Numbered from the stretch's first letter, positions 11,910-33,728 are shown. The stretch: DNA of 64,000 nucleotides from Chryseobacterium gleum (GCA_945902775.1 CAMDMY010000004.1:5914-69913), one strand, 5' to 3'. Notes: generated by a model from the sequence alone, not told the origin. Program-made: numbers and translations.

Positions 11910-11912
11910 AAT

Positions 11913-12536
11913 ATGGCATTAGGAAAAAACATGAAAGTTGATAGACTTATTCCTTTGGTAGATGAGAATAATGTTGAAAATGAAAAAGTTGATATTAAGT
12001 TAGATCTTACAGACTCAATAAATGAATTAGTTAAAGATGGTAAAAATTCCATTTTAATTGATTTGAATTTAGATAATGAAGATAAAAAAAGTTCAAGTGA
12101 AGAAGTTAAAATTGAGGTAATTAGTGAATTTAAAGAAAAGGTTGTTGAAGATATACCTCAAACTAATTCTCAATCTTCAATTGTTTATGAAAATATTGAA
12201 ACAGATTCTCTTAAGATTATTTTCACTCCCTCAAGAAGAAAAACACAAAAAAGAATTTTAATTAATATTGAAGGTTCTTTGACAATTAATAATGTAGAAG
12301 TTTTATTTTCAAAAGTTAATGTTGTTTTTGATTATTTTGATTTTGTAGAAGTAAATTTGAATAATGTAACAGAAATTGATTTAACTGTGATTCAATTATT
12401 TCATGCGATTAGAGTGAATTATTGGCCTCAAAAAAAATATATTTCAATAAATGCAGAATTTTCAAGGGATGATAGAAAATTATTAAACTCTTGTGGTTTC
12501 ACAGAGTTTCAAACACAAGTTTCAGCATCTGTATAA
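11913..12536 (+). CDS. Acidic protein with a C-terminal STAS-like (anti-sigma antagonist fold) domain; candidate ParA partner
   Basis: Starts 3 nt after the parA-like stop. The C-terminal half, INIEGSLTINNVEVLF...VEVNLNNVTEIDLTVIQLFHAI, resembles a STAS domain. Basic N-terminus MALGKNMKVDR. Confidence 0.5.
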   Translation: MALGKNMKVDRLIPLVDENNVENEKVDIKLDLTDSINELVKDGKNSILIDLNLDNEDKKSSSEEVKIEVISEFKEKVVEDIPQTNSQSSIVYENIETDSLKIIFTPSRRKTQKRILINIEGSLTINNVEVLFSKVNVVFDYFDFVEVNLNNVTEIDLTVIQLFHAIRVNYWPQKKYISINAEFSRDDRKLLNSCGFTEFQTQVSASV

Positions 12537-12563: not shown

Positions 12564-12932
12564 ATGGCAAAAATTATATTAATAGTTGATGATTCTGAAA
12601 GTATAAGAGAAGTTGTTGGTCATGCTTTACGAAGCGAAGGCTACAATGTTTTGGTTGGTGTAGATGGACAACATGGCTTGGAAATATTATTGGAAAATGA
12701 TAACGTAAATTTGATAATTTCAGATTTAAATATGCCTCGTATGGATGGAATTTCTTTCTTAAAAGAAGTCAGAAAATTAGATACTTTTAAATATCTTCCA
12801 ATTTTAATCTTAACTACAGAATCGCAAGAATCTAAAAAGATTGAAGCGAAAAATTCAGGTGCAACAGGTTGGATAATTAAACCCTTTGTGAAAGAGAAAT
12901 TACTCGCAGTAGTAAAAAAAGTATTGCACTGA
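12564..12932 (+). CDS. cheY: CheY-like response regulator
   Basis: 122 aa: [24 protein letters not shown]. Its stop overlaps the cheA start (TGATG). Confidence 0.88.
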   Translation: MAKIILIVDDSESIREVVGHALRSEGYNVLVGVDGQHGLEILLENDNVNLIISDLNMPRMDGISFLKEVRKLDTFKYLPILILTTESQESKKIEAKNSGATGWIIKPFVKEKLLAVVKKVLH

Positions 12933-15049: not shown

Positions 15050-15567
15050 TGAAAACAGAATTATCTAATGAGCAATTAACGGGTACAACAAAGTCTTTTT
15101 TGTCTTTTAAATTAGCAGAAGAGAGTTTTACAATTCCCGTTATGAAAATTATGGAAATTTTAGAAGTTCCAAAGATTACAAAAGTCCCCCAATCTCCCAA
15201 TTTTTTAGTAGGAGTAATCAATTTAAGAGGTGCGGTTTTACCTGTAATTGATACAAGAATTAAATTCGGAATGTCTCAAATACAATATACAATTAATACA
15301 TGTATTTTAGTATTAAGTATTGAAGTGAATGACGAAGAAGTGGTGGTAGGAGCTCTTGTAGATTCTGTTTCAGAGGTATTTGAATTAGATGAGAGCAAAA
15401 TAAAGCCAACTCCAACAATTGCTACGAAATATAGAGCGGATTATATTCAAGGGATGATTCAGGAAGATGATCATTTTATGATGGTGTTAAATATTGATAA
15501 AGTATTTTCATCTCTCGATTTAGAGTCTATTGTAGAATCCAAAGAAATTAATGTCAAAGAAGATTAA
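15049..15567 (+). CDS. cheW: Coupling protein CheW
   Basis: 172 aa: FLSFKLAEESFTIPVMKIMEI...VINLRGAVLPVIDTR. TAATG overlap with cheA. Confidence 0.9.
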   Translation: MKTELSNEQLTGTTKSFLSFKLAEESFTIPVMKIMEILEVPKITKVPQSPNFLVGVINLRGAVLPVIDTRIKFGMSQIQYTINTCILVLSIEVNDEEVVVGALVDSVSEVFELDESKIKPTPTIATKYRADYIQGMIQEDDHFMMVLNIDKVFSSLDLESIVESKEINVKED

Positions 15568-15610
15568 AAATTTTATCCATTTCAATAATTAAACTAATAA
15601 AAATTAAACT

Positions 15611-18568: not shown

Positions 18569-18579
18569 TTTAAACTATT

Positions 18580-18620
18580 GTCAGATGAAATAATTCATTT
18601 CATCTGACATACTTTTTATT
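18580..18620 (+). terminator. Rho-independent terminator after the receptor gene
   Basis: gtcagatgaaa, 7-nt loop, tttcatctgac (11-bp perfect stem), then atactttttattt. Confidence 0.75.
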
Positions 18621-18852
18621 TATGAAAACAAGGTCGACACTTCTTATTATTTTACTTTCTTAGTTTACGGTCAGCTAGATACGTTATCTAAAAACGAAAC
18701 TAGTACGTCAAATAAGAATAAAGTTGAAGTAAAGTTTTTCATATAACTATAAACAATTAGAGATGAGAATATTAGAAAAAAATAAATTTAATTCTGAATT
18801 TTTAATCTCTTAATTAACAATTTAAAAATAAAATAACAAAAAGTATTTTATA

Positions 18853-19683
18853 ATGAAAAGTGTAGTAAAAAAATCAATTATAATTTTATTATTAAGCGTA
18901 ACAACAAATGTTTTAGCTCAAGAAGAAGAGTTACAACCTGAATTTACTGAAAATATAGTTACGGATAGACCGGATCAAACGGAAGCACCAGCGTTGACAC
19001 CAAAAAAGTGGATGCAATTTGAGGTTGGAGTTCAAAGTGAATTCGATAAAGCTGATGGTTATTCATCTCAAAGTTCATTATATCCTACAGTTTTAGCTAA
19101 ATATGGTCTTTCTAAACGATTTGAATTAAGGCTTATTACCGAATATGCAAAAGACAATTTTAAAGTTGGAAATTTTAATTCATTAACATCAGGTTTAGCC
19201 CAATTTACAGTTGGTTCAAAAATTGCAATTAGTGAAGCGAAGGGTTGGTTGCCTCAAATTTCTTTAATTACTCATTTAGAGTTACCTTGGATTGCTTCTA
19301 AAGACTACAGGCCATCTACAATCGTACCTAGATACCGATTTTTATTTTGTCACCCAATAAATGATCGATTAAATTTTTCGTATAATTTGGGTATGGAATG
19401 GGAAAGTGGAACAAGTGTTTCTACAACTATATATACTGCTTCATTAGGCTTTGCTTTAACTGATAATATAGGATGTTTCGTTGAATCATATGGTTTTTTA
19501 AGAGAAAATACTAGTGGAGATAATCGTTTGGATGGAGGGTTAACTTTTTTACTAAATAGTAACCATCAATTAGATATTTCTGCGGGGTTTGGATTAAACG
19601 AAATATCACCAGATTATTTTTTGTCTTGTGGTTATTCTTTTCGTTTAAACGCTTTCGATAAAAATCGAAAAAAAAGTAAATAG
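18853..19683 (+). CDS. Outer-membrane beta-barrel protein (MetA-pathway/phenol-degradation-like transporter family)
   Basis: Signal peptide ...NVLAQ. N-terminal TDRPDQTEAP motif typical of that family. Beta-strand periodicity. Confidence 0.6.
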   Translation: MKSVVKKSIIILLLSVTTNVLAQEEELQPEFTENIVTDRPDQTEAPALTPKKWMQFEVGVQSEFDKADGYSSQSSLYPTVLAKYGLSKRFELRLITEYAKDNFKVGNFNSLTSGLAQFTVGSKIAISEAKGWLPQISLITHLELPWIASKDYRPSTIVPRYRFLFCHPINDRLNFSYNLGMEWESGTSVSTTIYTASLGFALTDNIGCFVESYGFLRENTSGDNRLDGGLTFLLNSNHQLDISAGFGLNEISPDYFLSCGYSFRLNAFDKNRKKSK

Positions 19684-19706
19684 GAAATTCTTCAATTGTA
19701 TATTTT

Positions 19707-20546
19707 ATGCTAGAGAGCGGTAAACAAGATTTAAGTGAAACTGATTTTCATAAATTAGCAGCATTTATTTATGATAATTATGGAATAAAGTTGCCGATTA
19801 CAAAAAAAATTATGCTTGAATCTAGATTAAAACCTAGGTTGAGAATTAATAATATGAGCTCATATAAGGAGTATAGTCAATTTATTTTATCTGGAAAATG
19901 TGGAGAAGCAGAAATCATAAATATGATTGATTTAGTTTCAACAAATAAAACCGATTTTTACAGGGAATCTGCTCATTTTGATTTCATGAAAGAAGTAATA
20001 TTACCGGAGCATTATAACAATCATTCTGAAAGACCTTTTAAAGTATGGAGCTCAGCAAGTTCCTCTGGTGAAGAAGCTTATACGACTGCAATTGTGATAA
20101 ATGAATTTTTGGAGGGAAAAAAATCGTTCGATTTTTCAATTCTAGGTACGGATATTTCTACGAGGATTATAGAAAAAGCTGCTATCGCAATATATCCAAT
20201 CGACAGAGTTGATGTAATTCCGTTATCTCAAAAGAAAAAATATTTATTGAGAAGTAAGGATACTGAAAATCCCACTGTGAGAATTGTTCCAGAGTTAAGA
20301 GCTAAAACTCGTTTTCAGCGATTGAATTTAATGGATAATTCGTATGATGTACCAAAAGATTTTGATGTTATTTTTTGTAGAAACGTGTTGATTTATTTTG
20401 ATAGAGAGACTCAAGAAAAAGTGATATCTAAATTATGTTATCATTTAAGAAAAGGAGGTTATTTTTTTCTAGGACATTCAGAATCTATTTCAGGATATGA
20501 TGTCCCGTTAAAACAAATTAAACCAACTATGTTTCAAAAAATATAA
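19707..20546 (+). CDS. cheR: Chemoreceptor glutamate methyltransferase CheR
   Basis: TDFYRE..., VWSSASSSGEEAYT, IFCRNVLIYFD. Confidence 0.92.
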   Translation: MLESGKQDLSETDFHKLAAFIYDNYGIKLPITKKIMLESRLKPRLRINNMSSYKEYSQFILSGKCGEAEIINMIDLVSTNKTDFYRESAHFDFMKEVILPEHYNNHSERPFKVWSSASSSGEEAYTTAIVINEFLEGKKSFDFSILGTDISTRIIEKAAIAIYPIDRVDVIPLSQKKKYLLRSKDTENPTVRIVPELRAKTRFQRLNLMDNSYDVPKDFDVIFCRNVLIYFDRETQEKVISKLCYHLRKGGYFFLGHSESISGYDVPLKQIKPTMFQKI

Positions 20547-20598
20547 CTAAATGACTACATTTATTTAGCATTTTATAAATGATTTATTATAAAATAAT

Positions 20599-21501
20599 AT
20601 GAAAAAACAATTGACGGATGAAGAGTTATTGAGCGAGTTAAAAAGACGCTTTGATGAGAATAAAAAAATGTTAGAAGATGAACGATTGCTGATTGAAGAG
20701 TTAAATAATGTTAATCAAAAATTATTAGCTTCAGAAAATTTAAAAAGTAATTTTTTATCGAATATTAGAAACGAGATTAATAACCCAATTGCATCGATTT
20801 TAGAATTATCTAAAAATATAAAAGAGGGTCAAATGGATGTTGAATCGATGAAGAGGTTTGCATCTTTGATTTTTTCTGAAACATTTGATTTAGATTTTCA
20901 GTTAAGAAATATTTTCTTGTCTGCGGAAATTGAAGCTGGTGAATCTCCTCTTTCAGTTATTTCTGTAAATATTACGTCTATTGTTTCCAATGTTATAGAT
21001 TCTTTTAAAGCTAAAATTGATAAAAAGGGTATCGAATTAATCTACAATAACACAATTGAGGAAAATACTATTTTTAAAACGGATTCTGAAAAACTACACC
21101 TTATACTTTGTAATCTTTTAGCGAATGCCATTCAATTTAATGATTATGGAGGGAAAATCGAAATTGATACAAAAATTGAAGATAACAAATTCTTTTTTTC
21201 TATAAAAGACAATGGAATTGGTATAGCAGAGGATGAATTAGAAAAAATTTATGATCGTTTTCATCAGATAGAATCAGGCGCTACAAAAACGTATGGTGGG
21301 CATGGTTTAGGTTTAAGTATTACAAAAGCCTTACTTGAAATTTTGGAGGGTAAAATTATTGTTTATAGTAATATAGGTGTAGGGAGTAATTTTATTATCG
21401 AAATTAACCAACTTGATCTAACTGAAGGAGATGAAGATGTTTACTCCTCTGATGGGAATGATTTCTTGTTTGATCAAGAAGAAGATGATATGTTATTTTA
21501 A
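20599..21501 (+). CDS. Cytoplasmic histidine-kinase-like protein lacking the phospho-acceptor His (H-box FLSNIRNEINNPI)
   Basis: Coiled-coil N-terminus. DHp helix aligns to FLANMSHEIRTPL, with Asn58 (AAC at 20770-20772) in the His position. Intact N, G1 and G2 boxes: LLANAIQFN, DNGIGI, GGHGLGLSI. Confidence 0.8.
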   Translation: MKKQLTDEELLSELKRRFDENKKMLEDERLLIEELNNVNQKLLASENLKSNFLSNIRNEINNPIASILELSKNIKEGQMDVESMKRFASLIFSETFDLDFQLRNIFLSAEIEAGESPLSVISVNITSIVSNVIDSFKAKIDKKGIELIYNNTIEENTIFKTDSEKLHLILCNLLANAIQFNDYGGKIEIDTKIEDNKFFFSIKDNGIGIAEDELEKIYDRFHQIESGATKTYGGHGLGLSITKALLEILEGKIIVYSNIGVGSNFIIEINQLDLTEGDEDVYSSDGNDFLFDQEEDDMLF

Positions 21502-21565
21502 ATTAGAAATTGAATGCCTGAGGTTGTTAATTTTTAATCTAAGGTATTTTGTAGTAATATAGAAA

Positions 21566-23112
<1,547 letters not shown>

Positions 23113-23135
23113 TTTATTATTTTTAATGATGGGTA

Positions 23136-23303
23136 TTTTCTACCATATAAGACATATTAGGACATATAAGGAAATGCACACGTATGAGATTTATTTTGTA
23201 AAATAAACATTTAAATGATTAATTTTCCAACTATATAATGTATTAAGCAAATAAGAAAATACACGCAGCCTTATATGATCTTAAATGCCTAATATGGTAA
23301 AAG
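23136..23303. repeat. Imperfect inverted pair of a roughly 35-nt AT-rich motif upstream of the GxxExxY gene
   Basis: The reverse complement of 23136-23171 (ccttatatgtcctaatatgtcttatatggtagaaaa) matches 23269-23303 (ccttatatgatcttaaatgcctaatatggtaaaag) at about 28 of 36 positions. Confidence 0.65.
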
Positions 23304-23351
23304 AAAATCAACTGCGAAGAATAAAAACTTATGTAGTAATAAGAAATATAA

Positions 23352-23765
23352 ATGAAAACTAAAGAATATTACAAACAACTGATTTACAAAGTAAATGGAG
23401 CAGCTATTGAAGTTCATAAAGAGCTTGGACCTGGTTTATTAGAAAGTGTATATCATAAATGTTTGAAATATGAATTAGAACTCCGTGGAATTGAATTTTG
23501 TTCTGAATTAGTAGTGCCAATTGATTATAAAGGGTTGAGATTAGATGCTGATTTAAAATGTGATTTATTTATTGAAAACTCATTGGTAGTAGAATTAAAA
23601 TCAGTTTTAAAAGTATTGCCTGTTCATGAAGCACAAATACTTACTTATATGTCATTACTTGAGGTTCCGATGGGATTAATGTTAAATTTTAATTGCACTA
23701 ATTTATATAAAGAAGGACAAAAAACATATGTAAACTATATGTATAAAACTTTAGAAGAATCATAA
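23352..23765 (+). CDS. GxxExxY family protein (PD-(D/E)XK-like fold)
   Basis: 137 aa: HKELGPGLLESVYHKCL ... DLFIENSLVVELKS ... HEAQILTYM. Confidence 0.85.
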   Translation: MKTKEYYKQLIYKVNGAAIEVHKELGPGLLESVYHKCLKYELELRGIEFCSELVVPIDYKGLRLDADLKCDLFIENSLVVELKSVLKVLPVHEAQILTYMSLLEVPMGLMLNFNCTNLYKEGQKTYVNYMYKTLEES

Positions 23766-23780
23766 ATCTTTTGATAATTT

Positions 23781-23814
23781 CTTATATGACCTTACATTCC
23801 TTAAATGGTAAAAA
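23781..23814. repeat. Third copy of the 34-nt motif, in direct orientation relative to 23270-23303
   Basis: cttatatgaccttacattccttaaatggtaaaaa against cttatatgatcttaaatgcctaatatggtaaaag: 28 of 34 identical by hand alignment. Confidence 0.65.
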
Positions 23815-23849
23815 AATAAATAAAATTTAAAAGTAAAAAACATAACAAA

Positions 23850-24212
23850 ATGAAAAAAGTATTAATTGTAGATGATTCAATGTATATGCGAACATTAATA
23901 AAAACAGCATTAACAGCAACTGAAAGATATGAAATTATTGGTCAGGCAGCTACTGGTAGTCAAGGTATTGAAATGGCATTAGAATTTGAGCCAGATTTAA
24001 TTACCATGGATAATATTTTACCAGATATGATTGGTATTGATATTGTTAAAGAATTACGTGCAGAAGGAATATCAGCAAAAATAATTATGGTTAGTGCTGT
24101 CGGACAAGACGATGTTGTTGAAGAAGGGATAGCGAATGGAGCACAAGACTATTTAGTAAAACCTTTTACAGCAGATCAATTAGTAGAAAGAGTAGACAAT
24201 TTATTTGTTTAA
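23850..24212 (+). CDS. Second CheY-like single-domain response regulator
   Basis: 120 aa: IVDDS, ITMDNILPDM, MVSA, VKPF. Confidence 0.88.
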   Translation: MKKVLIVDDSMYMRTLIKTALTATERYEIIGQAATGSQGIEMALEFEPDLITMDNILPDMIGIDIVKELRAEGISAKIIMVSAVGQDDVVEEGIANGAQDYLVKPFTADQLVERVDNLFV

Positions 24213-24237
24213 TTTTCTTAACTAAAAACTACAGATT

Positions 24238-24849
24238 ATGATGAAAGATTTGACTCCACAGGAGATAGACGTTGCTAGAAAAATAATTTCAGCAGGTTTA
24301 GTAAAATCAGCAGAATCGTTATCATTTTTTATGAATGAAACTATTTCATTGAAAGATTTTGATGCTGAAAAGAATTTAGATAATCCACCTTTAGAATTAG
24401 GTAAAAAAGATGAAAGTAATATTCATTTACTAACTACAAAGGTTATTGGTGAAATGAAAGGAATTTGTTGTTTGATTTTTTCAGAAGAAGAAGCAAATCA
24501 TTTAAGAAAAGCAGCACTTCCTCAAGAAATTTTAGATAGTCCTGAAATGATGGAAGAAATGAGTGATGGAATTATGTTAGAGGTTGATAATATTATTTCA
24601 GCATCAGTAATTACTCAATTTTCTAATTTATTAAAAGTTAAAATTCATGGTGGTGTACCGGACTTGAAAAAAGTTTCTTTTGAGGAAATGGAAGATTACA
24701 TTTCTAGTGAAGTTAATAACGAACTGTATTTAATCAGTTTTAAAACAAGTTTTGAATCATCTAAAGCACAATTTAATCCTGAATTTGTCTGGTTGTTTGA
24801 TAATACATTTATTGACAATATAAAAAAATATGCAGCATTAGAAGTTTAA
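24238..24849 (+). CDS. CheC/CheX/FliY-family CheY-P phosphatase-like protein with one intact active-site motif
   Basis: E115-x2-N118-x22-P141 (LEVDNIISASVITQFSNLLKVKIHGGVP; nt 24580-24660) fits the E-x2-N-x22-P family signature. The N-terminal repeat lacks E..N. Confidence 0.6.
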   Translation: MMKDLTPQEIDVARKIISAGLVKSAESLSFFMNETISLKDFDAEKNLDNPPLELGKKDESNIHLLTTKVIGEMKGICCLIFSEEEANHLRKAALPQEILDSPEMMEEMSDGIMLEVDNIISASVITQFSNLLKVKIHGGVPDLKKVSFEEMEDYISSEVNNELYLISFKTSFESSKAQFNPEFVWLFDNTFIDNIKKYAALEV

Positions 24850-24880
24850 TTATCCTACTAAATTTTGAAATATTTCCCCT

Positions 24881-26167
24881 ATGAAAGTATTAATAATCGA
24901 AAATGATGCAACTCATACCTTCAAGTTAAAAGAGATTTTAACAAATTTAGGATATGAAAAAGTGGAAATTGTATCTGATAGTCAATCAGCAATTATCGCA
25001 TTTGAAAAAGATCAACCAAACTTAATTTTAGTTGATTTAAATGATTCAGAATTTAGATATATTGAAGTAGTCACTCAATTTAAGAAAAGTAAAGAAATTC
25101 CCGTTTTATATATTGTTTCAAGTTTAAATGAAGAAATTTTAGAAAAAACAAAGAGTACAGAACCAATTGGGTTTATTACAATTCCTGTCGATATACTTCA
25201 ATTAAAATCGTTAATTAATATAGCATTTACGTTACATTCAAAATTCACTAGCAATATTGATCAATTGAATGAACAACTAAATATGGCAATGTTGCAAGTA
25301 GATGAGTTAACAGAGACAAATTCACATTTAATTACAGCTACATTTAGAGAAAGAGCCTTAAAACAAGAGTTAGGTCAAACTAAAGCACTTATTGAGGCTC
25401 AAAGTAAGAAGATAGTAGATAGTATAAATTATTCTTTAAGAATTCAACAGTCAATAATACCTTCTTCAGAAACTTTTAAAGAAGCATTAGGTAATCATAG
25501 TGTTTTTTATAAACCAAAAGATGTCGTGTCAGGAGATTTTCCTTGGTTAATGAGAAAAGACAACTATGTGTATTATGGAGCAATTGATTGTACAGGACAT
25601 GGGGTTCCTGGAGCGATGATGTCAATGATTGGGAATTTATTGTTAAATGCGATAGTTGAGAACGGAAATTCTTGTAAAACACCTTCAGAAGTCTTAGCTG
25701 AACTTCACAAAGCAGTTGTTCAAACTCTAAAACAAGATGCGGAAGGGAATAAAGCTGCAGATGGAATGGATGCTGCTTTATGTAGAATCGATTTTGAAAA
25801 GAAAGAATTGTTATTTTCTGGAGCGCATCTTCCTTTGTTACTTTTAAGAGACGGAGAATTGGAGACATTTAAAGGGGATAAGTTTCCTGTTGGTGGTATG
25901 CAATATCGTAATCGAAATACGTATTCCGATCACACAATTCAATTGAAAGAAAAAGATCGTGTTTTTGTTTTTTCTGACGGTATTATTGATCAAGTTGGTG
26001 GAGAGGAAAACATGAAATGGATGACATCTAGATTAAAAGAATTTATTCTTGAAAATCAAGATGTATCAATGACCGATTTTAAAGAAACGATTAGCCAGAA
26101 GTTTGAAGAATTTAAAGGGGAACACAAACAAGTTGATGATGTATTATTAATAGGTGTTGAAATCTAA
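24881..26167 (+). CDS. Receiver-domain-fused PP2C/SpoIIE-family Ser/Thr phosphatase (SiaA/RsbU-like)
   Basis: Atypical N-terminal REC: IIEND, Asp52 in LILVDLN, ITIP in place of the KP motif. Coiled-coil linker. PP2C motifs VSGDFPW, DCTGHGVPGAMMS, DGMDAAL, SDGIIDQ, DDVLLIGVEI. Confidence 0.85.
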   Translation: MKVLIIENDATHTFKLKEILTNLGYEKVEIVSDSQSAIIAFEKDQPNLILVDLNDSEFRYIEVVTQFKKSKEIPVLYIVSSLNEEILEKTKSTEPIGFITIPVDILQLKSLINIAFTLHSKFTSNIDQLNEQLNMAMLQVDELTETNSHLITATFRERALKQELGQTKALIEAQSKKIVDSINYSLRIQQSIIPSSETFKEALGNHSVFYKPKDVVSGDFPWLMRKDNYVYYGAIDCTGHGVPGAMMSMIGNLLLNAIVENGNSCKTPSEVLAELHKAVVQTLKQDAEGNKAADGMDAALCRIDFEKKELLFSGAHLPLLLLRDGELETFKGDKFPVGGMQYRNRNTYSDHTIQLKEKDRVFVFSDGIIDQVGGEENMKWMTSRLKEFILENQDVSMTDFKETISQKFEEFKGEHKQVDDVLLIGVEI

Positions 26168-26170
26168 TAT

Positions 26171-26704
26171 ATGGAATATACTTATACATTGCAGAAAATA
26201 ATGGCAGAGAGTAATTATCTACTGGCCATTAGAGATAATTTTGAAAGTTTATTATCCAAATCGGTTTTTTCAATTGTTGAAAGTCAAATTTCGAATGATA
26301 AGCTAGATGTAAATATTAAAAATAGAATATTTAGTGTCGTTGTTGAATGTGTTCAAAATATTTGTTCAAATGATAAAGCACATTCTACTACAAAAAATTC
26401 TATCTTACTGTTAAATAAAGTTGATTATGGACATAATATTGTTGTAGGTACCAAACTCAATGAAGAAAGAAAATTAAGATTAGAAAAAATTTTAACTGAA
26501 ATTTCAACATCAAGCATTGAAGAACTAAAAATAAAAAGAAAAAGTATAATTTCTTCTAGGACTAATTTAGAGGAATATCAAAAGGAGATATTAGCTTTAA
26601 TTGATATGTTTATACGCTCGGCTGGAAAGGTGAAATATCACTTTCAAGGAGAAGATGGGAACGATTGTTTTTTAATAATTGAAATAGAAATTTCTAATAA
26701 ATAA
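26171..26704 (+). CDS. SiaB-like small GHKL-fold protein, paralogue 1 (Gly-rich ATP-lid motif not detectable)
   Basis: 177 aa. Similar in length and pattern to the next ORF (FSVVVECVQNI against FNVMVEQLQNI) but has no GxGLG box. Starts 3 nt after the phosphatase gene. Confidence 0.5.
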   Translation: MEYTYTLQKIMAESNYLLAIRDNFESLLSKSVFSIVESQISNDKLDVNIKNRIFSVVVECVQNICSNDKAHSTTKNSILLLNKVDYGHNIVVGTKLNEERKLRLEKILTEISTSSIEELKIKRKSIISSRTNLEEYQKEILALIDMFIRSAGKVKYHFQGEDGNDCFLIIEIEISNK

Positions 26705-26708
26705 AATT

Positions 26709-27266
26709 ATGACTCTTAAGGATACATCTTTAAAACAAATTCATTCAATTATGAATGATGAAAATGCAGTTTTAATATACTCGGGAGAATTTAATCAAGA
26801 GATTGTGAAATCTATGTTAAGTTACACCGAAGGAAAATTAGAATCTTCAGGTATTGATGACCTAGTTAGAAAAAAGATTTTCAATGTGATGGTTGAACAA
26901 CTTCAGAATATAACTAAACATCAATACACAGATGAAGAAAAACAAGTAATTCAACCATGTTTTATATTGATTGAACATGAAAATTATTATAATCTTGTTA
27001 CAGGTAATCCGATTCATATTGACACCATACAGATGGTAAAAGATAGAATAGATCAAGTGAATAGTTTGAATGCTGAAGAATTAAAAGCCTTATACAAACA
27101 AGCAAGGTTGAATTCAAGAATATCTGAAGTCGGTGGAGCAGGTTTAGGGTTTATTGATGTTGCTAGAAAAACAGAAAATAAACTTGAATTTGCTTTTTTT
27201 GATATCGACTCAGAAAATTATAAATATTTCACTTTGAAAACTCAAATAAATAAAATTATTGAGTAA
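26709..27266 (+). CDS. SiaB-like small protein kinase (GHKL fold), paralogue 2
   Basis: 185 aa. N-box-like VEQLQNITKH. G-box EVGGAGLGFIDVARK (nt 27132-27149). Flanked by the PP2C and DUF1987 genes. Confidence 0.6.
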   Translation: MTLKDTSLKQIHSIMNDENAVLIYSGEFNQEIVKSMLSYTEGKLESSGIDDLVRKKIFNVMVEQLQNITKHQYTDEEKQVIQPCFILIEHENYYNLVTGNPIHIDTIQMVKDRIDQVNSLNAEELKALYKQARLNSRISEVGGAGLGFIDVARKTENKLEFAFFDIDSENYKYFTLKTQINKIIE

Positions 27267-27344
27267 TTAAAGTAATAAATCATTGTTACTTTTGTAAAAA
27301 ATAGAATCTTAATATTGGTATATATACTATTAAAAAAATAAAAA

Positions 27345-27722
27345 ATGGAACACTTAGTAATTGCGAAAACAGATGATACTCCAGAAATTGACTTCAATCC
27401 TGGAACAAAAGAATTAAAAATTAGTGGTAGATCTTTACCAGAAGATGTAACTACTTTTTATGCACCTGTTCTAGAATGGTTAGATGAGTTGGAAGAATCA
27501 GCTATAGGCGAACTTAAATTCATCGTTAATTTAGAATATTTTAACACAGCATCATCAAAATTAATTTTAGATATTTTGATGAAATTGGAAGATATTCATT
27601 CAGAAGGAAGTAATTCAATAGAAATTATTTGGAATTTTGATAAGCGAGATACGGATATGGAAGAGGCTGCTGAAGAATACTCAGAACTGGTTGAAGTTCC
27701 TTTTCAAATAATTGGAATTTAA
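27345..27722 (+). CDS. DUF1987 / SiaC-family regulatory phosphoprotein
   Basis: 125 aa: TPEIDFNPGTKELKISGRSLPEDVTTFYAPVLEWL. YFNT68ASSK, with the Thr codon ACA at 27546-27548. Confidence 0.75.
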   Translation: MEHLVIAKTDDTPEIDFNPGTKELKISGRSLPEDVTTFYAPVLEWLDELEESAIGELKFIVNLEYFNTASSKLILDILMKLEDIHSEGSNSIEIIWNFDKRDTDMEEAAEEYSELVEVPFQIIGI

Positions 27723-27750
27723 TTTTTTTTTGTAAAGGTAAGGCTATATG

Positions 27751-27828
27751 CTTTATCTAATAGTTAAGAGTAATATAAACGCGATTCATAAGTCTATTGT
27801 CTTTTATCTAATAGTCTAAATATCTAAA
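27751..27828. repeat. TCTAAT/TCTATT-type short repeats upstream of the ABC transporter gene
   Basis: ctttatctaatag (27751-27763) and cttttatctaatag (27801-27814). gtctattgtcttttatctaatagtctaaatatctaaa resembles the array at 1284-1350. Confidence 0.55.
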
Positions 27829-27833
27829 AAAAG

Positions 27834-30800
27834 ATGAGTGAGGAAATATTAAAGGCATTGATGCAACTTTTCGCCATAATCTATAAACAAGATACGGGGG
27901 GAGAAAAGATTCAAGATAATTATGTAAGAGAGTTTTTGCTTTCTCAAATTTCACGAGAAAGATTTGATACCTACTTCGATCAGTATACTGAATATATAAA
28001 TGCTGAATCATCAGAAACAGGCGAAGTAAAAAGAACTTCTGTAAAAGATTCTGTTCGAACTTTAGCAATTTGTAAAAGAATTAATAAAACTCTTTCTCAA
28101 AAACAAAAATCCATTGTATTAGTTCGTATCACTGAGTTTATTCACATAACTGAAACAATCTCGCCATTGAGATTAGAGTTACTGGCAACAATAAGTGAGG
28201 TATTTAAGATCGAAAAGAAAGAATCTGAAAACATTTTAGCATTTACAGCAGCTAAATCACTTGATGATGTAATCAGTAATGAAGATTTTCAACTTTATTT
28301 GGATAAAGAATATTTCAACGTTAACGATGGTCGAGTTTATAATAAAGATGGTCTAAATGCAATCTTTTATTTTTGTTTAATAGAATCTGCAGGAATCGTT
28401 TTGTTCAGGTTTTTCGGAGATATAACCGTAAATTTAAATGGTTTACAGATTAAAGAAAATAAAACCTATGTAGTAAATGATGGTTCGACTATTCGTACTC
28501 CAAAATCTTCTGTATTTTTCAGTGAGATTTTAACTAATATTCGTAAAAAAGGTACTTCAGAAAATATTCTTTTTGATGCTTCTATTCCAAAGTATACATT
28601 TCCTAATGGAAAAGTAGCACTTGAAGGAATTGAAATTGTTGAAGAATCAGGAACGTTGTTTGGGATAATGGGAGGTTCTGGAGCAGGAAAAACAACACTA
28701 TTAAATGTGCTGTCTGGCATTGAACCAACCGATCAAGCGACTGTTTTATTGAATGGTTACGATATAAAAACAAACGAAGCAAAAGCCAACGTAGGTTTTA
28801 TTCCTCAAGACGACCTATTGATGGAAGAGTTATCTGTTTTCCAAAATTTATACTATAATGCGAAATTATTGAACGATACTTGGAATGAGGTAGAGTTGAA
28901 TGAAAGAATTGAAAAAGTTTTAAAAGAATTAGGTCTTTTTGAAATAAAAGATATTACCGTTGGAAATCCATTGAATAAAAAGATTTCTGGAGGACAAAGA
29001 AAACGTTTAAATATTGCATTAGAATTAATCAGAGAGCCTTTGGTTCTTTTTGTTGATGAGCCTACTTCTGGATTATCTTCAAAAGATTCTGAAAATGTTA
29101 TGCAATTGTTGAAACATTTAACACAAACAGGAAAAATCATATTTGTGGTTATTCATCAACCAGCAAGTGAAATTTATAAGTTGTTTGATAAGTTATTTAT
29201 TTTAGATGTTGGAGGTTTGCCAGTTTATTACGGAAATCCAATTGAAGCAGTAATTTATTTTAAAACAATTACAAATCAAATTAATCACGAAATAGGTGAG
29301 TGTGGCTCTTGCGGAAATGTAACTCCAGAACAAATTTTTGATACTCTTGAAGATAAAGAGATTGATGATTTCGGGAATTTTACTCAGCATAGAAAAATTA
29401 AACCAGATACGTGGAATAAATACTTTAAGGAAAAATTCACACCGAAAGATGTTGTGAAAGATAAAGAGTACGATAAATTAGTAACTATCAATCCTCCAAG
29501 TCTTTTGAAACAGTTTTTTGTTTTTTTTACGAGAGATATTCTTTCAAGATTTAATGATAAGCAATACGTATTAATTGCTTTATTAGAAGCTCCTGTTTTA
29601 GCTGCGCTTTTGAGTTTTATTGTTAAAAGTTCAAACAACACAGATAATGAGTATACATTTAGTATGAACGAAAATGTGCCTGCGTATATTTTTATGTTAA
29701 TTATTGTGGCGCTATTTGTAGGTTTAACAATAAGTGCTGAAGAGATTTTTAAAGATCAAAAAATTTTAAAAAGAGAAAAGTTTTTAAGATTATCTCGATT
29801 AAGTTATTTAAAATCAAAAGCGGTTTATTTGACTTTGTTATCTATCGTTCAGTCATTTTTACTGTGTGCTGTTGGTAATTTGATAATTGAATTATATGAT
29901 AATTTCTTCTATTATTGGATGTTAATTTTCTCTGTTTTTGTTTTCGGAAATATTTTAGGATTGTTGCTTTCATCTAGTTTTAAAACGATTGTAACAATTT
30001 ATATCATTATTCCTTTAATCGTTATTCCTCAAATGATATTGGGTGGCGCTATGTTCAAATTTGAAAATTTAAATAAATCAATGGGTGGCGGACATCATAT
30101 TCCTGTTGTGTCTAATTTAATGGTTTCAAAATGGGCATATGAAGGAATAATGGTAGCTCAATTTTCTCAAAATAAATATGAAAAAGAAGTTTTTGAATAT
30201 GAACAATTATTGAGTGAGTATAATTATCGGACTTCTTATTTATATCCTTATTTGACAGATGTTTTAAATGACCAATTAACAGGAAGAAAAACTGAGAAAA
30301 ACAAATGTTCTGATACTGTTTATACTACTTTGAAATTTGAAGCAACAAAAACAATTGCGAAAAGTATGTTAACGTATGACCTGAATGATAAGTCAATTGG
30401 AAATGCACAAAAATTCATTGATGATTTAACCAATTTATATCAAGATAAACAAAATGAATTATCGCGATTAAAAGATGAGAAGGTAATCACTCTTAATAAA
30501 AAGTTAGGGAAGAATTCATTAATGAATTTGAAAAGAGGTTTTCAAAATGATGCATCATCAGACATTGTTCAAAATTCTACTACTAAAAAGAAGTATTTTG
30601 TAGAAAATAATAGGGTATATCAAAATTATGATCATATTTTCTTAAGAGATCATTTGAATCCAGATTATAATTTGGAAGGTTCATTTATGTTTGTCCCAAT
30701 AAAATCATTTTTTGGTAACCAAATTCCAACTTTTTGGTATAACATAATAATTATATGGTTATTTAATATTTTATTATTTATAGCATTATATTTTGATGTA

Positions 30801-30848
30801 CTTAAGAAATTAATGTCATTGAATTTAGTTAACAAAAAAACGGTTTAA
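27834..30848 (+). CDS. ABCG-type (ATPase plus ABC-2 permease) transporter with a roughly 260-aa N-terminal cytosolic module (possibly TerB-like plus FHA-like)
   Basis: Walker A GGSGAGKTTLLNVLSG, signature ISGGQRKRLNIALE, Walker B LFVDEPTSGLS, then multiple TM helices. The N-terminal domain calls are weak and pattern-based. Confidence 0.85.
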   Translation: MSEEILKALMQLFAIIYKQDTGGEKIQDNYVREFLLSQISRERFDTYFDQYTEYINAESSETGEVKRTSVKDSVRTLAICKRINKTLSQKQKSIVLVRITEFIHITETISPLRLELLATISEVFKIEKKESENILAFTAAKSLDDVISNEDFQLYLDKEYFNVNDGRVYNKDGLNAIFYFCLIESAGIVLFRFFGDITVNLNGLQIKENKTYVVNDGSTIRTPKSSVFFSEILTNIRKKGTSENILFDASIPKYTFPNGKVALEGIEIVEESGTLFGIMGGSGAGKTTLLNVLSGIEPTDQATVLLNGYDIKTNEAKANVGFIPQDDLLMEELSVFQNLYYNAKLLNDTWNEVELNERIEKVLKELGLFEIKDITVGNPLNKKISGGQRKRLNIALELIREPLVLFVDEPTSGLSSKDSENVMQLLKHLTQTGKIIFVVIHQPASEIYKLFDKLFILDVGGLPVYYGNPIEAVIYFKTITNQINHEIGECGSCGNVTPEQIFDTLEDKEIDDFGNFTQHRKIKPDTWNKYFKEKFTPKDVVKDKEYDKLVTINPPSLLKQFFVFFTRDILSRFNDKQYVLIALLEAPVLAALLSFIVKSSNNTDNEYTFSMNENVPAYIFMLIIVALFVGLTISAEEIFKDQKILKREKFLRLSRLSYLKSKAVYLTLLSIVQSFLLCAVGNLIIELYDNFFYYWMLIFSVFVFGNILGLLLSSSFKTIVTIYIIIPLIVIPQMILGGAMFKFENLNKSMGGGHHIPVVSNLMVSKWAYEGIMVAQFSQNKYEKEVFEYEQLLSEYNYRTSYLYPYLTDVLNDQLTGRKTEKNKCSDTVYTTLKFEATKTIAKSMLTYDLNDKSIGNAQKFIDDLTNLYQDKQNELSRLKDEKVITLNKKLGKNSLMNLKRGFQNDASSDIVQNSTTKKKYFVENNRVYQNYDHIFLRDHLNPDYNLEGSFMFVPIKSFFGNQIPTFWYNIIIIWLFNILLFIALYFDVLKKLMSLNLVNKKTV

Positions 30849-30878
30849 AATTTAGATTACAACAATAAATACATTAGC

Positions 30879-31784
30879 ATGAAAAAAAATACATTAACAA
30901 CTTTCTTTTTAGGTTTATTATTAGTTTCAATTGTAATGACAGGGTGTTCAGGAAATTCTGAAAACTCTATCGAAAATCAAATTAATAAAAAAGAAGAGTC
31001 TAAAGTTAAAGTGAGTAAAGAGGCTATAGATCAATTGATTCAATCTTTTCCATCGCCAATTGAGACTTCTATCATTATTAAAAAAGCAGGAAATGCATTT
31101 AGTAGTGAATTATTAATTCCAACTAAAAAATTAGATCGTTTTGTTTCAAGCTATGACAAAGCAATGGCAATGGGTGCTTTTGGAGGGGATATGGGATATA
31201 TCAATATTTATGAAAAATCTTTCGTCGCAATTGATTATTTAGCAGCTATACGTTTACTTTCTGCTGATTTAGAAATTGATCGTTTCTTTGATTTTGAAGA
31301 TATGATTAGAATGGCTAAAAGCTCTAGTAATATTGATTCTTTGCAAAGAATGTCAACTGAGAGTTTTAATAACATGGAAAAGTATCTTCGAGAGAAAGGG
31401 AGAGATGAATTAAGTGTTTTAATAGTTTTTGGAACTTGGTTGGAAGGCGCATATATTATATCGTATATAACAAACGATAACATGTCAGAAGAAATGCAAA
31501 ATCGTGTTGCTGAACAAAAAGAATGCGTAGAGAAAATTAATAAAATTCTTGTTTCTGCATCAAACGATAAATATTTTGCAAATTTAGCCAGACAGTTGAA
31601 GCCTTTAGTTAAGCTATATGAAAATGTGAAAATTGAAAAAATTATGAGAGAACCTGAAATGAAAGAAGTGGATGGTCAATTAATTTTTATTGATAAAAGT
31701 GAAACTAAAATAATCAAACCAGATGGTTTAGTTCAAGATATTGTTAATGAAACGGTTAAATTAAGAAACCAACTATTAAAATAA
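30879..31784 (+). CDS. Lipoprotein of unknown function
   Basis: Lipobox IVMTGC after a signal peptide. 301 aa, largely helical composition. Confidence 0.7.
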   Translation: MKKNTLTTFFLGLLLVSIVMTGCSGNSENSIENQINKKEESKVKVSKEAIDQLIQSFPSPIETSIIIKKAGNAFSSELLIPTKKLDRFVSSYDKAMAMGAFGGDMGYINIYEKSFVAIDYLAAIRLLSADLEIDRFFDFEDMIRMAKSSSNIDSLQRMSTESFNNMEKYLREKGRDELSVLIVFGTWLEGAYIISYITNDNMSEEMQNRVAEQKECVEKINKILVSASNDKYFANLARQLKPLVKLYENVKIEKIMREPEMKEVDGQLIFIDKSETKIIKPDGLVQDIVNETVKLRNQLLK

Positions 31785-31791
31785 TATTGAC

Positions 31792-32244
31792 ATGAAAACG
31801 AAAGGTTATATAATTATAGTATTCATTGCTCTGGGATGCCTAGTTTCGTTTATTTCAAGTCCGAAAGGTGGGACCAAATGTACAGGTGATGATGAATATG
31901 CAGTTGGAATAGGAAGTTTAGGCGCTTACTCATTAATAAAAGATTATAGGATTAGTATGAAGGCTGGAGATGATGCTCCAAATTTTATGATTTCACTAAA
32001 GGCTGGTTTGAAGTATCGATTTTTACCAATTCAGAATCCAGACAATAAGAAAAAAATGATTTTGTCTATTTACATGAATCAACAAAAAGGGATGATGCTA
32101 GCTACTTCTTTTAATAAAGCTACAGGTAAACATTATCCAAATATCGATTTTGCATGTAGAACAACAGGTTCTTTTTATATTTTCTTCGAAATGGAAGATG
32201 GTGAAAAAGGATGTGGTGTAGGTATGTTCTCTGTAGCAAATTAA
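31792..32244 (+). CDS. Small exported or membrane-anchored protein of unknown function
   Basis: 150 aa with an N-terminal hydrophobic segment. Starts 8 nt after the previous gene. Confidence 0.6.
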   Translation: MKTKGYIIIVFIALGCLVSFISSPKGGTKCTGDDEYAVGIGSLGAYSLIKDYRISMKAGDDAPNFMISLKAGLKYRFLPIQNPDNKKKMILSIYMNQQKGMMLATSFNKATGKHYPNIDFACRTTGSFYIFFEMEDGEKGCGVGMFSVAN

Positions 32245-32268
32245 AATTATAAAGAGTTAATTTTTTGT

Positions 32269-32300
32269 ATGGGTGGTATATTTATCACCCATTTTTTTTT
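32269..32300 (+). terminator. Rho-independent terminator
   Basis: atgggtg, 10-nt loop, cacccat, followed by a run of 9 T. Confidence 0.7.
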
Positions 32301-32324
32301 GAAACTTTCATTGTTTTAGGGGAC

Positions 32325-33200
32325 TCAGATTAGTAGTTTCAAGATTTCTTTTGCCTCTTTTACATCATGAACTCGAAGAATTGAGGCCCCTTTGAGTATA
32401 GAGATTGTATTTAAAATAGATGTTCCATTTAAAGCTTCGGATGGTTCAATATTTAATTTTTTATAAATCATAGATTTTCTTGAAACTCCAGCTAATAAAG
32501 GTTTACCAAGTATTTTAAATTGATTCATTTGGTGCAATAATGTGTGATTTTGTTCTAGTGTTTTGCTAAATCCAAAACCTGGATCTAAAATAACATCATT
32601 TACACCGATGGATTTTAATTCACTTAATTTTTTTGAAAAATAGCTTGAAATTGAAGTGAATAAATTATCATAATTTGTTTCAAATTGCATAGTAGATGGT
32701 GTACCTTTCATATGCATTAAAATGTAAGGACATTTGTATTTATCAAGTACTTTAAATAATTCATTATCAATGCTCCATCCACTAATATCATTAATAATAT
32801 TTATGCCGTTTTCTAAGCCAACTGAAGCAACTTCAGATCTAAATGTATCAAGAGATAAATAAATTTCAGGAAACTCTTTTCGTATTGATGTAATAGCAGG
32901 TAAAACACGATCGATTTCTTCTTTTATAGTGATTTCTTTTGCACCTGGACGGGAAGAATATCCACCAATATCAATAATGTCTACGCCTTCTTTAATTTGT
33001 TTTTCAACATGAACTAATAGTGTTTTTTCAGATTGAATTTGACTTTCAGAATAAAATGAATCAGGGGTGCAATTTATAATCCCCATTATTTTAGGTTTTG
33101 ATAAATCAAATAATTTATCCTTCAATCTTAGTTGATTAATTGTTGGAAAATATGTATCTTCAACCCTTAAATTGCGCATATTTTTTATTAAATGAGTCAT
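32325..33200 (-). CDS. folP: Dihydropteroate synthase
   Basis: IMGIINCTPDSF, DIGGYSSRPGA, DPGFGFSKT, GVSRKS. The start may lie at an internal Met (MRNLRV...). Confidence 0.92.
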   Translation of the reverse strand: MTHLIKNMRNLRVEDTYFPTINQLRLKDKLFDLSKPKIMGIINCTPDSFYSESQIQSEKTLLVHVEKQIKEGVDIIDIGGYSSRPGAKEITIKEEIDRVLPAITSIRKEFPEIYLSLDTFRSEVASVGLENGINIINDISGWSIDNELFKVLDKYKCPYILMHMKGTPSTMQFETNYDNLFTSISSYFSKKLSELKSIGVNDVILDPGFGFSKTLEQNHTLLHQMNQFKILGKPLLAGVSRKSMIYKKLNIEPSEALNGTSILNTISILKGASILRVHDVKEAKEILKLLI

Positions 33201-33728
33201 ACTTCTTTAGAATATACAAATGTAATCAATGTTTGTCGAGAAATTTTCTCTAAGAAAACAAAAGATTACGGAACGGCTTGGAGAATACTTCGACCTAGTT
33301 CATTAACGGATCAAATATTTATTAAAGCCCAAAGAATCAGAACTATACAAGTAACTGGTGAGAATAAAGTGGGGGAAAGTATTAACGATGAATTCATTGC
33401 AATTGTAAATTATTGTATAATGGCAATAATTCAAGTGCGAGAAATTGAAATAAAGGATATTGATTTAAATCCTGATTTAGCTATTTCTTTATATGATAAA
33501 TATTCAAAAGAAGCCTTCGATTTGATGATGAAAAAAAACCATGATTACGGAGAAGCATGGAGAGATATGCGTGTAAGTTCTTTAACAGATTTGATTTTAA
33601 TGAAGATTTTACGTGTAAAACAAATCGAAGATAATAATGGGGCAACTCTTATTAGCGAAGGTATTGATGCAAATTATTTTGATATGTTGAATTATTCAGC
33701 ATTTTCATTAATTCATTTAAATAATTAA
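33192..33728 (+). CDS. DUF1599 domain protein
   Basis: Two internal repeats: KDYGTAWRILRPSSLTDQIFIKAQRIR and HDYGEAWRDMRVSSLTDLILMKILRVKQIE. Confidence 0.8.
   Translation: MSHTSLEYTNVINVCREIFSKKTKDYGTAWRILRPSSLTDQIFIKAQRIRTIQVTGENKVGESINDEFIAIVNYCIMAIIQVREIEIKDIDLNPDLAISLYDKYSKEAFDLMMKKNHDYGEAWRDMRVSSLTDLILMKILRVKQIEDNNGATLISEGIDANYFDMLNYSAFSLIHLNN

Follow-up and report, generated by a model that had tools for sequence, protein, structure and literature searches.

Positions 24881-27722 of a 64,000-nucleotide stretch of the Chryseobacterium gleum assembly GCA_945902775.1 (CAMDMY010000004.1:5914-69913; the whole stretch is referred to here as the window) encode a module that resembles the SiaA, SiaB and SiaC proteins of Pseudomonas aeruginosa. 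Our analysis leans towards a SiaABC-type Thr-phosphorylation partner switch that has an ABC exporter, and not a diguanylate cyclase, as its functional target, and the exporter is put forward as the output because of conserved gene order. Across the Bacteroidota, the SiaC-family phosphoprotein might directly gate this ABCG-type exporter via a TerB-like/FHA-like module, a proposal that we hold with rather more doubt than conviction. The N-terminal domain of the exporter as the site of contact is also held less firmly than the exporter as the target.

The module and its SiaC-family protein

The interval consists of exactly four open reading frames (ORFs) on the plus strand, encoding a receiver-PP2C phosphatase of 428 amino acids (aa; 24881-26167), two DUF6272 proteins of 177 aa (26171-26704) and 185 aa (26709-27266), and a SiaC-family protein of 125 aa (27345-27722). 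An earlier reading of the sequence alone (the sequence-only reading) had described a REC-PP2C phosphatase, two SiaB-like ORFs and a DUF1987 protein here, and ORF and Pfam matches bore this out.

The SiaC-family protein, a phosphoprotein by family, scored 125.8 bits with the Pfam SiaC model (PF09345; cutoff 24.5) and 81.1 bits with the NCBIfam equivalog model NF038265 (cutoff 150). It is therefore a member of the family but not an equivalog of P. aeruginosa SiaC. A phmmer alignment to P. aeruginosa SiaC (6KKO_C, E 6.5e-14; 6K4F) was free of gaps from residue 3 to beyond residue 80 and placed T68 of the query (YFNTASS, within YFNTASSK) opposite T68 of SiaC (YLNTSS); the SiaC chains in the PDB carry one or two extra N-terminal residues, hence an offset in chain numbering. 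T68 was invariant in an alignment of 14 sequences (A1), comprising 13 from Bacteroidota and P. aeruginosa SiaC, and YFNTAS was found in 80 of 81 related loci. The homology of this Thr68 to the SiaC phosphosite, on which the sequence-only reading depended, is thus upheld by the gap-free alignment and by its invariance in A1.

The surface around the phosphosite differs from that of SiaC. In P. aeruginosa, 14 residues of SiaC contact the stalk of the cyclase SiaD (PMC8457831). The window protein keeps Y65, N67, T68 and E110 and has Leu for M75, and the remaining nine of the 14 are changed (Q10 to D, D29 to R, Y31 to L, S69 to A, I71 to S, D79 to M, R103 to D, L107 to A and D114 to L), with reversal of charge in D29 to R and R103 to D. 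R29, L31, A69, S71 and A108 are invariant in the 13 Bacteroidota sequences of A1 and D104 is present in 12 of them; residues 10, 79 and 115 vary. The phosphosite loop is therefore kept while the flanking helix contacts are replaced, a pattern that, as read from the alignment, fits a different binding partner.

No SiaD-type cyclase was found as a co-encoded output in the window or in 84 related loci. Consensus probes for GGDEF (three versions), EAL and HD-GYP, all recognised by Pfam at 172-320 bits, gave no tblastn match at E<=1 against the six frames of the window and the 84 loci. The same probes gave no phmmer match at E<=10 in 8437 six-frame segments from the window and these loci, and the positive control passed. 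The search covered 64 kb of this genome and, in the relatives, about 10 kb either way of the SiaC-like gene, with about 1.4 Mb of flanks in total. The absence of GGDEF, EAL and HD-GYP from the window, noted earlier by inspection, is confirmed by these validated probes and extends to the related loci.

Conceivably, the switch still leads to cyclic di-GMP (c-di-GMP) or to some other enzyme whose gene lies elsewhere in the genome, and the exporter stands where it does for historical reasons. The conserved loop Y65-N67-T68, which contacts SiaD in P. aeruginosa, agrees with this, but kinase and phosphatase require this loop in any case. The flanks of the 84 loci hold no GGDEF, EAL or HD-GYP domain, the residues that bind the SiaD stalk have been exchanged, two of them for residues of opposite charge, and the exporter stays adjacent across orders despite reshuffled input genes. 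We regard a c-di-GMP output as quite unlikely.

Gene order in related loci

Related loci point to the exporter as the target of the SiaABC-type switch. One genome per species was scanned with the SiaC alignment, 572 relatives were found, and the best 80 loci were used. All 80 are from Bacteroidota (Flavobacteriales, Bacteroidales, Cytophagales, Sphingobacteriia and Chitinophagaceae), mostly at 50-57% identity. Neighbours were counted by tblastn with the window proteins at loci with enough sequence. A gene for an ABCG protein with the same N-terminal 250 residues lies on the same strand, no more than 700 bp downstream of the SiaC-like gene, at 72 of 78 loci, and in relatives the ABCG start follows the SiaC-like stop after a median of 42 bp. 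The 301-aa protein encoded after the ABCG gene has a homolog at 59 of 63 loci, and the 150-aa protein that comes next has one at 40 of 62. Upstream, a PP2C gene was found at 66 of 72 loci, and CheB with CheR, 8-9 kb away or nearer, at 55 of 59; CheA was found upstream at 4 of 59. In the reverse direction, starting from matches to the N-terminal domain of the exporter, all three contexts with enough sequence have PP2C, DUF6272 and SiaC genes upstream.

The sequence-only reading had inferred that the SiaC-like protein acts on a target other than SiaD and had named three candidates in cis. The inference agrees with the lack of a cyclase in cis and with the nine changed SiaD contacts, and among the candidates gene order favors the ABCG transporter. 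The other two fared worse, since the gene for a kinase without its phospho-accepting His occurs in the closest relatives only and the chemosensory array is represented by CheA at just 4 of 59 loci.

The exporter gene keeps its place from one order to another although the input genes are rearranged, which suggests a variable input and a constant output. The phosphatases fall into two size classes, about 430 aa with a receiver in the loci of CheA type and about 870 aa with a GAF-PAS-PAS-PP2C arrangement elsewhere. In L025 (Bacteroidales), the order is CheR, CheR, receiver-less CheB, GAF protein, GAF-PAS-PAS-PP2C, DUF6272, SiaC, TerB-ABC exporter, 308-aa protein and 149-aa protein. In L001 (Paracrocinitomix mangrovi CP091819, a cultured relative with the same locus), a CheA cluster and a receiver-PP2C gene lie upstream of the exporter cassette and a second input set lies downstream at 14766-17740, with CheR, receiver-less CheB, DUF6272 and a SpoIIE phosphatase. 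Two phosphatase/kinase pairs thus flank a single SiaC-like gene and a single cassette in L001.

CheR, often in two copies, and a receiver-less CheB stand beside the GAF protein and the sensor phosphatase at L025 (3719-9373) and at most of the Bacteroidales loci (L008-L084). Typical Bacteroidales loci have no CheA or chemoreceptor near this CheR/CheB set. By analogy, this suggests methylation of a sensor that is not a methyl-accepting chemotaxis protein (MCP), like the action of RsbM on RsbK in Bacillus cereus.

The exporter cassette

The SiaC-like gene and the exporter gene of the window are separated by a spacer of 111 bp (27723-27833), which contains an exact 12-nt direct repeat, TTATCTAATAGT, at 27753 and 27804. 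GTCTT-type repeats were seen at the same spacer position in close relatives.

The exporter gene (27834-30848, plus strand) encodes an ABCG-type half-transporter of 1004 aa, with Pfam matches to ABC_tran (99.7 bits) and ABC2_membrane (74.2 bits). It comprises a TerB-like bundle (residues 3-147), an FHA-like beta domain (152-228) and a nucleotide-binding domain at about 260-480, which precedes the membrane domain as in ABCG/ABC-2 proteins. Its closest solved relatives are Cdr1, Pdr5, ABCG2, ABCG1 and ABCG5/8, and the alignment with ABCG1 spans residues 259-748; the score with TIGR00955 was 269.6, below the cutoff. Hydropathy indicated five membrane helices at 579-737 and a sixth at 971-989, with about 230 hydrophilic residues between them. 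With the nucleotide-binding domain in the cytoplasm, the 230-aa stretch would form a large periplasmic loop at the position of ABCG extracellular loop 3.

An AlphaFold2 model of residues 1-255, built from a 32-sequence alignment, had a pLDDT of 83.9 and a pTM of 0.81. In Foldseek searches against the PDB, the helical part matched the TerB-like protein PG1108 (2H5N) with a weak E-value. Pfam TerB (PF05099) was found in 29 of 32 homologs with a best E-value of 2.4e-10, and the exporter ortholog of L025 passes the TerB cutoff (38.7 against 24.4); the window protein itself had no TerB match at E<=1. The beta part matched almost only FHA domains (E-values 0.016-0.8; probabilities reach 0.99 and TM on the target reaches 0.5), among them those of Rad53 (FHA1), KIF1A, MEK1, kanadaptin, NIPP1 and Bdellovibrio DgcB. 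S185, N202-G203 and G217-S218, the positions mapped to Ser, Asn-Gly and Gly-Asp/Ser of FHA domains, are conserved. The first 20 residues of the exporter (MSEEILKALMQLFAII.KQD) are almost invariant.

The exporter gene is followed by the gene for the 301-aa protein (30879-31784, plus strand), a putative lipoprotein with a lipobox Cys23 that is conserved in 90% or more of alignment A4. Its AlphaFold2 model (pLDDT 81.2) is mostly helical with a small beta sheet, and it had no meaningful fold match in the PDB and no family in Pfam or NCBIfam. The third gene (31792-32244, plus strand) encodes the protein of about 150 aa, which has an N-terminal hydrophobic, signal-like segment by hydropathy and no family match in Pfam or NCBIfam. 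In L088 (6594-8773), a divergent exporter (34% identity) comes after genes for a 301-aa protein homolog (E 9e-41) and a 154-aa secreted protein, and neither L088 nor L087 has SiaABC genes upstream of the cassette. The three-gene exporter cassette is therefore a unit of its own, to which the switch was attached in one large clade.

Several observations weigh against the exporter, or its N-terminal domain, as the target of the SiaC-like protein. The 80 loci are the best of 572 hits and were found with two peptide patterns, so they represent one Bacteroidota subfamily. The sequence analysed was 64 kb from this genome plus some 20 kb for each related locus, and a cyclase could be encoded elsewhere, as a c-di-GMP output would require. 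In L006, a perfect palindrome directly follows the SiaC stop codon, between the SiaC and exporter genes, so that the two genes may not always be co-transcribed; this palindrome, like the repeat in the window spacer, may be a regulatory or terminator element. Pairwise distances of the parts of the cassette correlate at 0.8-0.93 over 53 loci, and partial correlations of SiaC with the N-domain, the lipoprotein and the PP2C domain are 0.31, 0.42 and 0.36. All pairs correlate alike, which indicates co-inheritance rather than specific co-evolution, and no signal between SiaC and the N-domain beyond shared descent was detected in these 53 loci. The likeness to FHA is one of fold alone, with weak E-values; Pfam FHA matched 0 of 32 exporter homologs, and the canonical phosphothreonine-binding Arg and His were not evident in the FHA-like domain by alignment reading. 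The MSEEILKALMQLFAII helix was considered as a SiaC docking site and rejected, as the same helix occurs in the cassettes of L087 and L088. Since the helix and the FHA-like residues are kept where SiaABC genes are missing upstream, they are no SiaC-specific docking mark.

Another point on this side is that six of the 78 loci lack the exporter; no cyclase follows the SiaC-like gene in any of the six. In three of them, L010, L013 and L072, a giant PKD/CHU_C protein, a cargo of type IX secretion, is encoded downstream of the SiaC-like gene. In L010 (7237-13745), the cargo gene is directly downstream and is followed by a PorP/SprF gene, and in L013 (11559-16763) and L072 (11837-17050, where the giant protein was assigned without a Pfam scan), it lies beyond a CheR-like gene on the opposite strand. 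These neighbours hint at cell-surface outputs. A PAS hybrid kinase gene comes next in L059, and unrelated genes come next in L044 and L065.

The last point on this side is that CheR and CheB, at 55 of 59 loci, are about as constant nearby as the exporter. This would be expected if the cassette were an input, with its transport state or TerB domain informing the switch, or just a co-regulated neighbour, and the SiaC-like protein acted elsewhere, for example back on CheB, CheR or sensory proteins. CheB lacks a receiver in most loci and so needs some other control, and the cassette also occurs alone without SiaABC genes, both of which are in keeping with such an arrangement. Immediate adjacency on the same strand, however, is a property of the exporter, with its median spacer of 42 bp, whereas CheB and CheR are about 4-8 kb away, beyond the sensor phosphatase. 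Moreover, CheR and CheB normally act on sensors and are thus upstream in signal flow (compare RsbM and RsbK, PMC4574943). An input or bystander role of the cassette appears unlikely.

The FHA-like fold also raises the question of which form of the SiaC-like protein would be active. In Mycobacterium tuberculosis, Rv1747 is an ABC transporter with FHA domains that is regulated by the kinase PknF (PMC3138270, PMC5549992), and with this precedent (PMC3138270) the FHA-like domain of the exporter might recognise phospho-Thr68. The beta domain (152-228) has its Foldseek matches among FHA domains, and the FHA Ser and Asn-Gly positions (S185, N202-G203) appear conserved. On the other hand, the alignment as read shows neither the phosphate-binding GR Arg nor the SxxH His, none of the 32 homologs has a Pfam FHA match, and the same FHA-like residues are conserved in the cassette without SiaABC genes. 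An active phospho-form that is read in this way seems very unlikely to us.

The DUF6272 proteins and the phosphatase

The two DUF6272 proteins, treated by the sequence-only reading as two SiaB-like ORFs of about 180 aa, do both belong to DUF6272 and have about that length, but they are not equivalent. The second copy (26709-27266, plus strand; Pfam DUF6272 119.9 bits) passes the NCBIfam model SiaB_fam_kinase at 139.5 bits (cutoff 85), falls below the cutoff of the equivalog model kinase_SiaB (59.7 against 225), and matches SiaB in the PDB (6KKO_A, E 2.8e-7). It keeps E63, N67 and GGAGLGFIDVARK, and E63 faces Glu61 of SiaB, the predicted catalytic residue of that kinase (PMC7647112). The upstream copy (26171-26704, plus strand; Pfam DUF6272 54.6 bits) is a divergent paralog that fails SiaB_fam_kinase (NF038262; 48 bits against 85). 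It keeps E59 and N63 and has QKEILAL where the GAGLG ATP-lid motif is expected (alignment A3). GAGLG is absent from the upstream copy at 8 of 10 two-copy loci, and the loci tied to a paralog without the motif are L001, L002, L005, L007, L009, L012, L020 and L044. In two-copy loci, the copy adjacent to SiaC always keeps the motif, and both the E..QN and GAGLG motifs are kept at 68 of 69 single-copy loci. From these motifs, the upstream protein is probably a pseudokinase, and the window probably encodes one kinase that looks catalytically competent and one pseudokinase.

DUF6272 proteins are GHKL-type kinases of the anti-sigma-factor kind (PMC7647112), and this family relationship allows a different assignment of roles. 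A DUF6272 protein, either the kinase or the pseudokinase, might itself be the effector that holds the exporter or another target, with the unphosphorylated SiaC-like protein as its antagonist, as RsbV acts on RsbW. Retention of a second copy without the ATP lid at 8 of 10 two-copy loci suggests a binding-only role and would suit such an effector. At most loci, however, the DUF6272 gene is the only one of its kind and is catalytically intact (61 of 72 loci by tblastn, 69 by ORF extraction), no annotated locus contains a sigma factor gene, and in P. aeruginosa the output is contacted by SiaC and not by SiaB (PMC8457831). We consider an effector role of DUF6272 rather unlikely, and the least improbable of the alternatives to an exporter contacted by the SiaC-like protein.

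The phosphatase (24881-26167, plus strand) is SiaA-like in its PP2C domain and has a degenerate receiver at its N terminus. Pfam detected Response_reg at 35.4 bits (cutoff 30.2) and SpoIIE/PP2C at 82.3 bits. Its best NCBIfam match was to positions 357-654 of the SiaA model (180.7 bits, E 4.8e-53); the score does not reach the cutoff of the SiaA equivalog (NF038263; 700), and the N terminus is a receiver instead. The best PDB match of the PP2C domain was the SiaA PP2C domain 6K4E (E 2.9e-36), and the next phosphatase followed at 5e-13. SiaA binds metal through D457, D474, G477, D600, G601 and D653 (PMC7647112). In the alignment to 6K4E, the metal-binding residues of the window protein are intact, with GDF at 217-219, DCTGHG at 236-241, SDGIIDQ at 365-371 and DD at 419-420; the first and last of these read in fuller form SGDF and VDDV, the latter at residue 418.

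The receiver was aligned to E. coli CheY and to the CheY and CheB receivers of the window itself. CheY D12, D13, D57, T87 and K109 correspond to E7, N8, D52, V78 and I101, so three of the five catalytic residues are lost (the equivalents of D13, T87 and K109). This agrees with the atypical receiver noticed earlier, with END, a retained Asp52 and Ile101 for Lys, and adds the loss of the Thr/Ser position (V78); the suggestion of a pseudo-receiver is supported by these residues. All five residues are kept in the orthologs of L001, L005 and L058, Lys is lost in L027, and the receivers of L007 and L020 are more degenerate. In L002, the phosphatase has no receiver at all although a CheA cluster is directly upstream. 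Judged from this distribution, phosphotransfer to the receiver was probably ancestral and lost several times.

Proposed mechanism

By analogy with SiaABCD, the DUF6272 kinase encoded at 26709-27266 would phosphorylate Thr68 and the PP2C phosphatase would remove the phosphate. One phospho-form of the SiaC-like protein would bind the exporter and alter its activity, and this would be the unphosphorylated form if the protein behaves as SiaC does with SiaD. The likeliest docking site would be the cytoplasmic N-terminal TerB-like/FHA-like module of the exporter. Upstream sensors would set the balance of phosphatase and kinase. In the window, the sensor would be the CheA/CheW/MCP array, linked to the phosphatase through the receiver domain; as this receiver lacks three catalytic residues, the coupling would probably occur by binding and not by phosphotransfer. 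In most other lineages, the sensor would be the GAF-PAS N terminus of the phosphatase, with CheR and CheB encoded nearby. A possible role of the pseudokinase is to hold or buffer the SiaC-like protein.

If this scheme is correct, chemosensory arrays or GAF-PAS sensors would control the export of an envelope or surface component via a Thr-phosphorylation partner switch. This would be a route from signalling to a transporter that has no described counterpart, and it would provide a function for Che-like clusters in non-flagellated bacteria.

Comparison with known systems

To our knowledge, SiaABC has been studied only as the regulator of one Pseudomonas cyclase. Our literature search found nothing on DUF6272, PF09345 or SiaC-like homologs outside Pseudomonas. 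On other targets of the SiaC family, the literature searched offers only a one-line speculation that such proteins modulate 'adjacent proteins' (PMC8457831). The exporter cassette, conserved across several Bacteroidota orders, would be a concrete candidate for a second output class of the family, and it could also serve as the output of Che-like clusters in Bacteroidota that glide or are non-motile. Should the SiaC-like protein act on the exporter directly, regulation of an ABC transporter after translation by a small phosphoprotein would join the known repertoire.

P. aeruginosa SiaABCD (PA0172-PA0169) is the closest known system. The window shares with it a PP2C phosphatase closest to SiaA, a DUF6272 kinase of the SiaB family and a SiaC-family protein whose Thr68 lies in a Y-x-N-T-x-S loop, and the same partner-switch logic is expected (PMC7647112, PMC8457831). 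Unlike SiaABCD, the window has no SiaD or GGDEF gene, and the ABCG exporter cassette holds the downstream position. The N terminus of the phosphatase is a receiver here and GAF-PAS elsewhere, in place of SiaA's own N-terminal region. An extra pseudokinase copy is present, the surface that contacts SiaD is largely changed, and the SiaA-, SiaB- and SiaC-like scores are all below the NCBIfam equivalog cutoffs.

RsbU/RsbV/RsbW-type switches, including RsbK-RsbM-RsbY of B. cereus and HptB-HsbR-HsbA-HsbD of P. aeruginosa, likewise consist of a PP2C phosphatase, a Ser/Thr kinase of the GHKL type and a small phosphoprotein that resembles STAS. A histidine kinase signals to RsbY and HsbR, both of which are receiver-PP2C proteins (PMC4574943; PMC8457831), and the B. 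cereus sensor is the substrate of a CheR-type methyltransferase (PMC4574943). In the window, by contrast, the phosphoprotein is SiaC/DUF1987 and not a canonical STAS protein, the kinase is DUF6272, and the conserved neighbour is a transporter, with no sigma factor nearby.

M. tuberculosis Rv1747 is comparable as an ABC exporter with N-terminal cytoplasmic FHA-type domains beside a Ser/Thr phosphorylation system that modulates it (PMC3138270, PMC5549992). It has two canonical FHA domains, and a Hanks-type kinase phosphorylates Rv1747 itself. In the window, the domain is FHA-like by fold only and lacks the Arg and His, the kinase is of GHKL type, and phosphorylation would fall on a small protein distinct from the transporter.

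Wsp of P. aeruginosa and other chemosensory pathways that do not serve motility also place a set of CheA, CheW, MCP, CheR and CheB beside a non-flagellar output, and the host lineage here is not known for flagella. The response element of Wsp is a receiver-GGDEF protein, whereas that of the window would be a receiver-PP2C protein which feeds a Thr-phosphorylation switch and whose receiver is without three of the five conserved catalytic residues. Wsp is also mentioned in PMC9239204.

The SiaC family contains 5480 representatives at 50% clustering. Among the best 150 of them, DUF6272-SiaC fusions (P0436, P0472) and tandem SiaC-SiaC proteins were found, and fusions of SiaC to ABC, TerB or GGDEF domains were not. 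Many of the proteins P0361-P0510 are tandem SiaC-SiaC proteins of about 250-280 aa. Other domain partners were cytidylate kinase-like (P0474) and a double zinc ribbon (P0391); some of these unusual architectures may be artefacts of gene calling.

The upstream Che-like cluster and genomic surroundings

The module belongs to a run of plus-strand genes from about 11 kb to 32.3 kb of the window, which has a G+C content of about 30%. The closest SiaC-like proteins are named Crocinitomicaceae, Cryomorphaceae or Flavobacteriales. The block ends in a terminator-like hairpin at 32269-32292 (plus strand; hairpin scan) with a 10-bp stem followed by a T-run. In the scanned region 18000-33500, comparable hairpin strength was found only at 18579-18609, where a strong terminator-like hairpin lies 5' of an outer-membrane protein gene (18853-19683). 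A search for anti-phage defence with PADLOC gave generic receiver and ABC ATPase matches only, and a defence system was rejected. An Rfam search for structured RNA in the spacers returned one distant tRNA only.

The Che-like cluster upstream of the module (12564-24849, plus strand throughout) was assigned from Pfam matches. It comprises genes for CheY (12564-12932), CheA (12932-15049), CheW (15049-15567) and a PAS-HAMP-MCP chemoreceptor (15611-18568), then the gene for the outer-membrane protein, of the Phenol_MetA_deg family, and then those for CheR (19707-20546), a kinase with HisKA and HATPase_c domains (20599-21501), CheD (21566-22036) and CheB (22036-23112). A second CheY (23850-24212) and a weakly assigned CheC/CheX-like protein (24238-24849; NCBIfam CheC 35 bits, Pfam CheX 20.8 bits) complete it. 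A CheA-type cluster 5' of the module was also found in L001, L002, L020 and L058. The H-box of the kinase reads IRNEINNPI, with Asn where the His that accepts the phosphate would be; this replacement is shared by the L005 and L007 orthologs, so it is not a sequencing error.

Between the CheB gene and the second CheY gene lies a PD-(D/E)XK gene (PDDEXK_3; 23352-23765). The close relative L005 has no gene at this position, and it looks like a recent insertion into the cluster. The cluster is opened by genes for a ParA/MinD-type ATPase and a 207-aa protein without a family match (11163-12536, plus strand), and a ParA homolog is likewise encoded upstream in L058.

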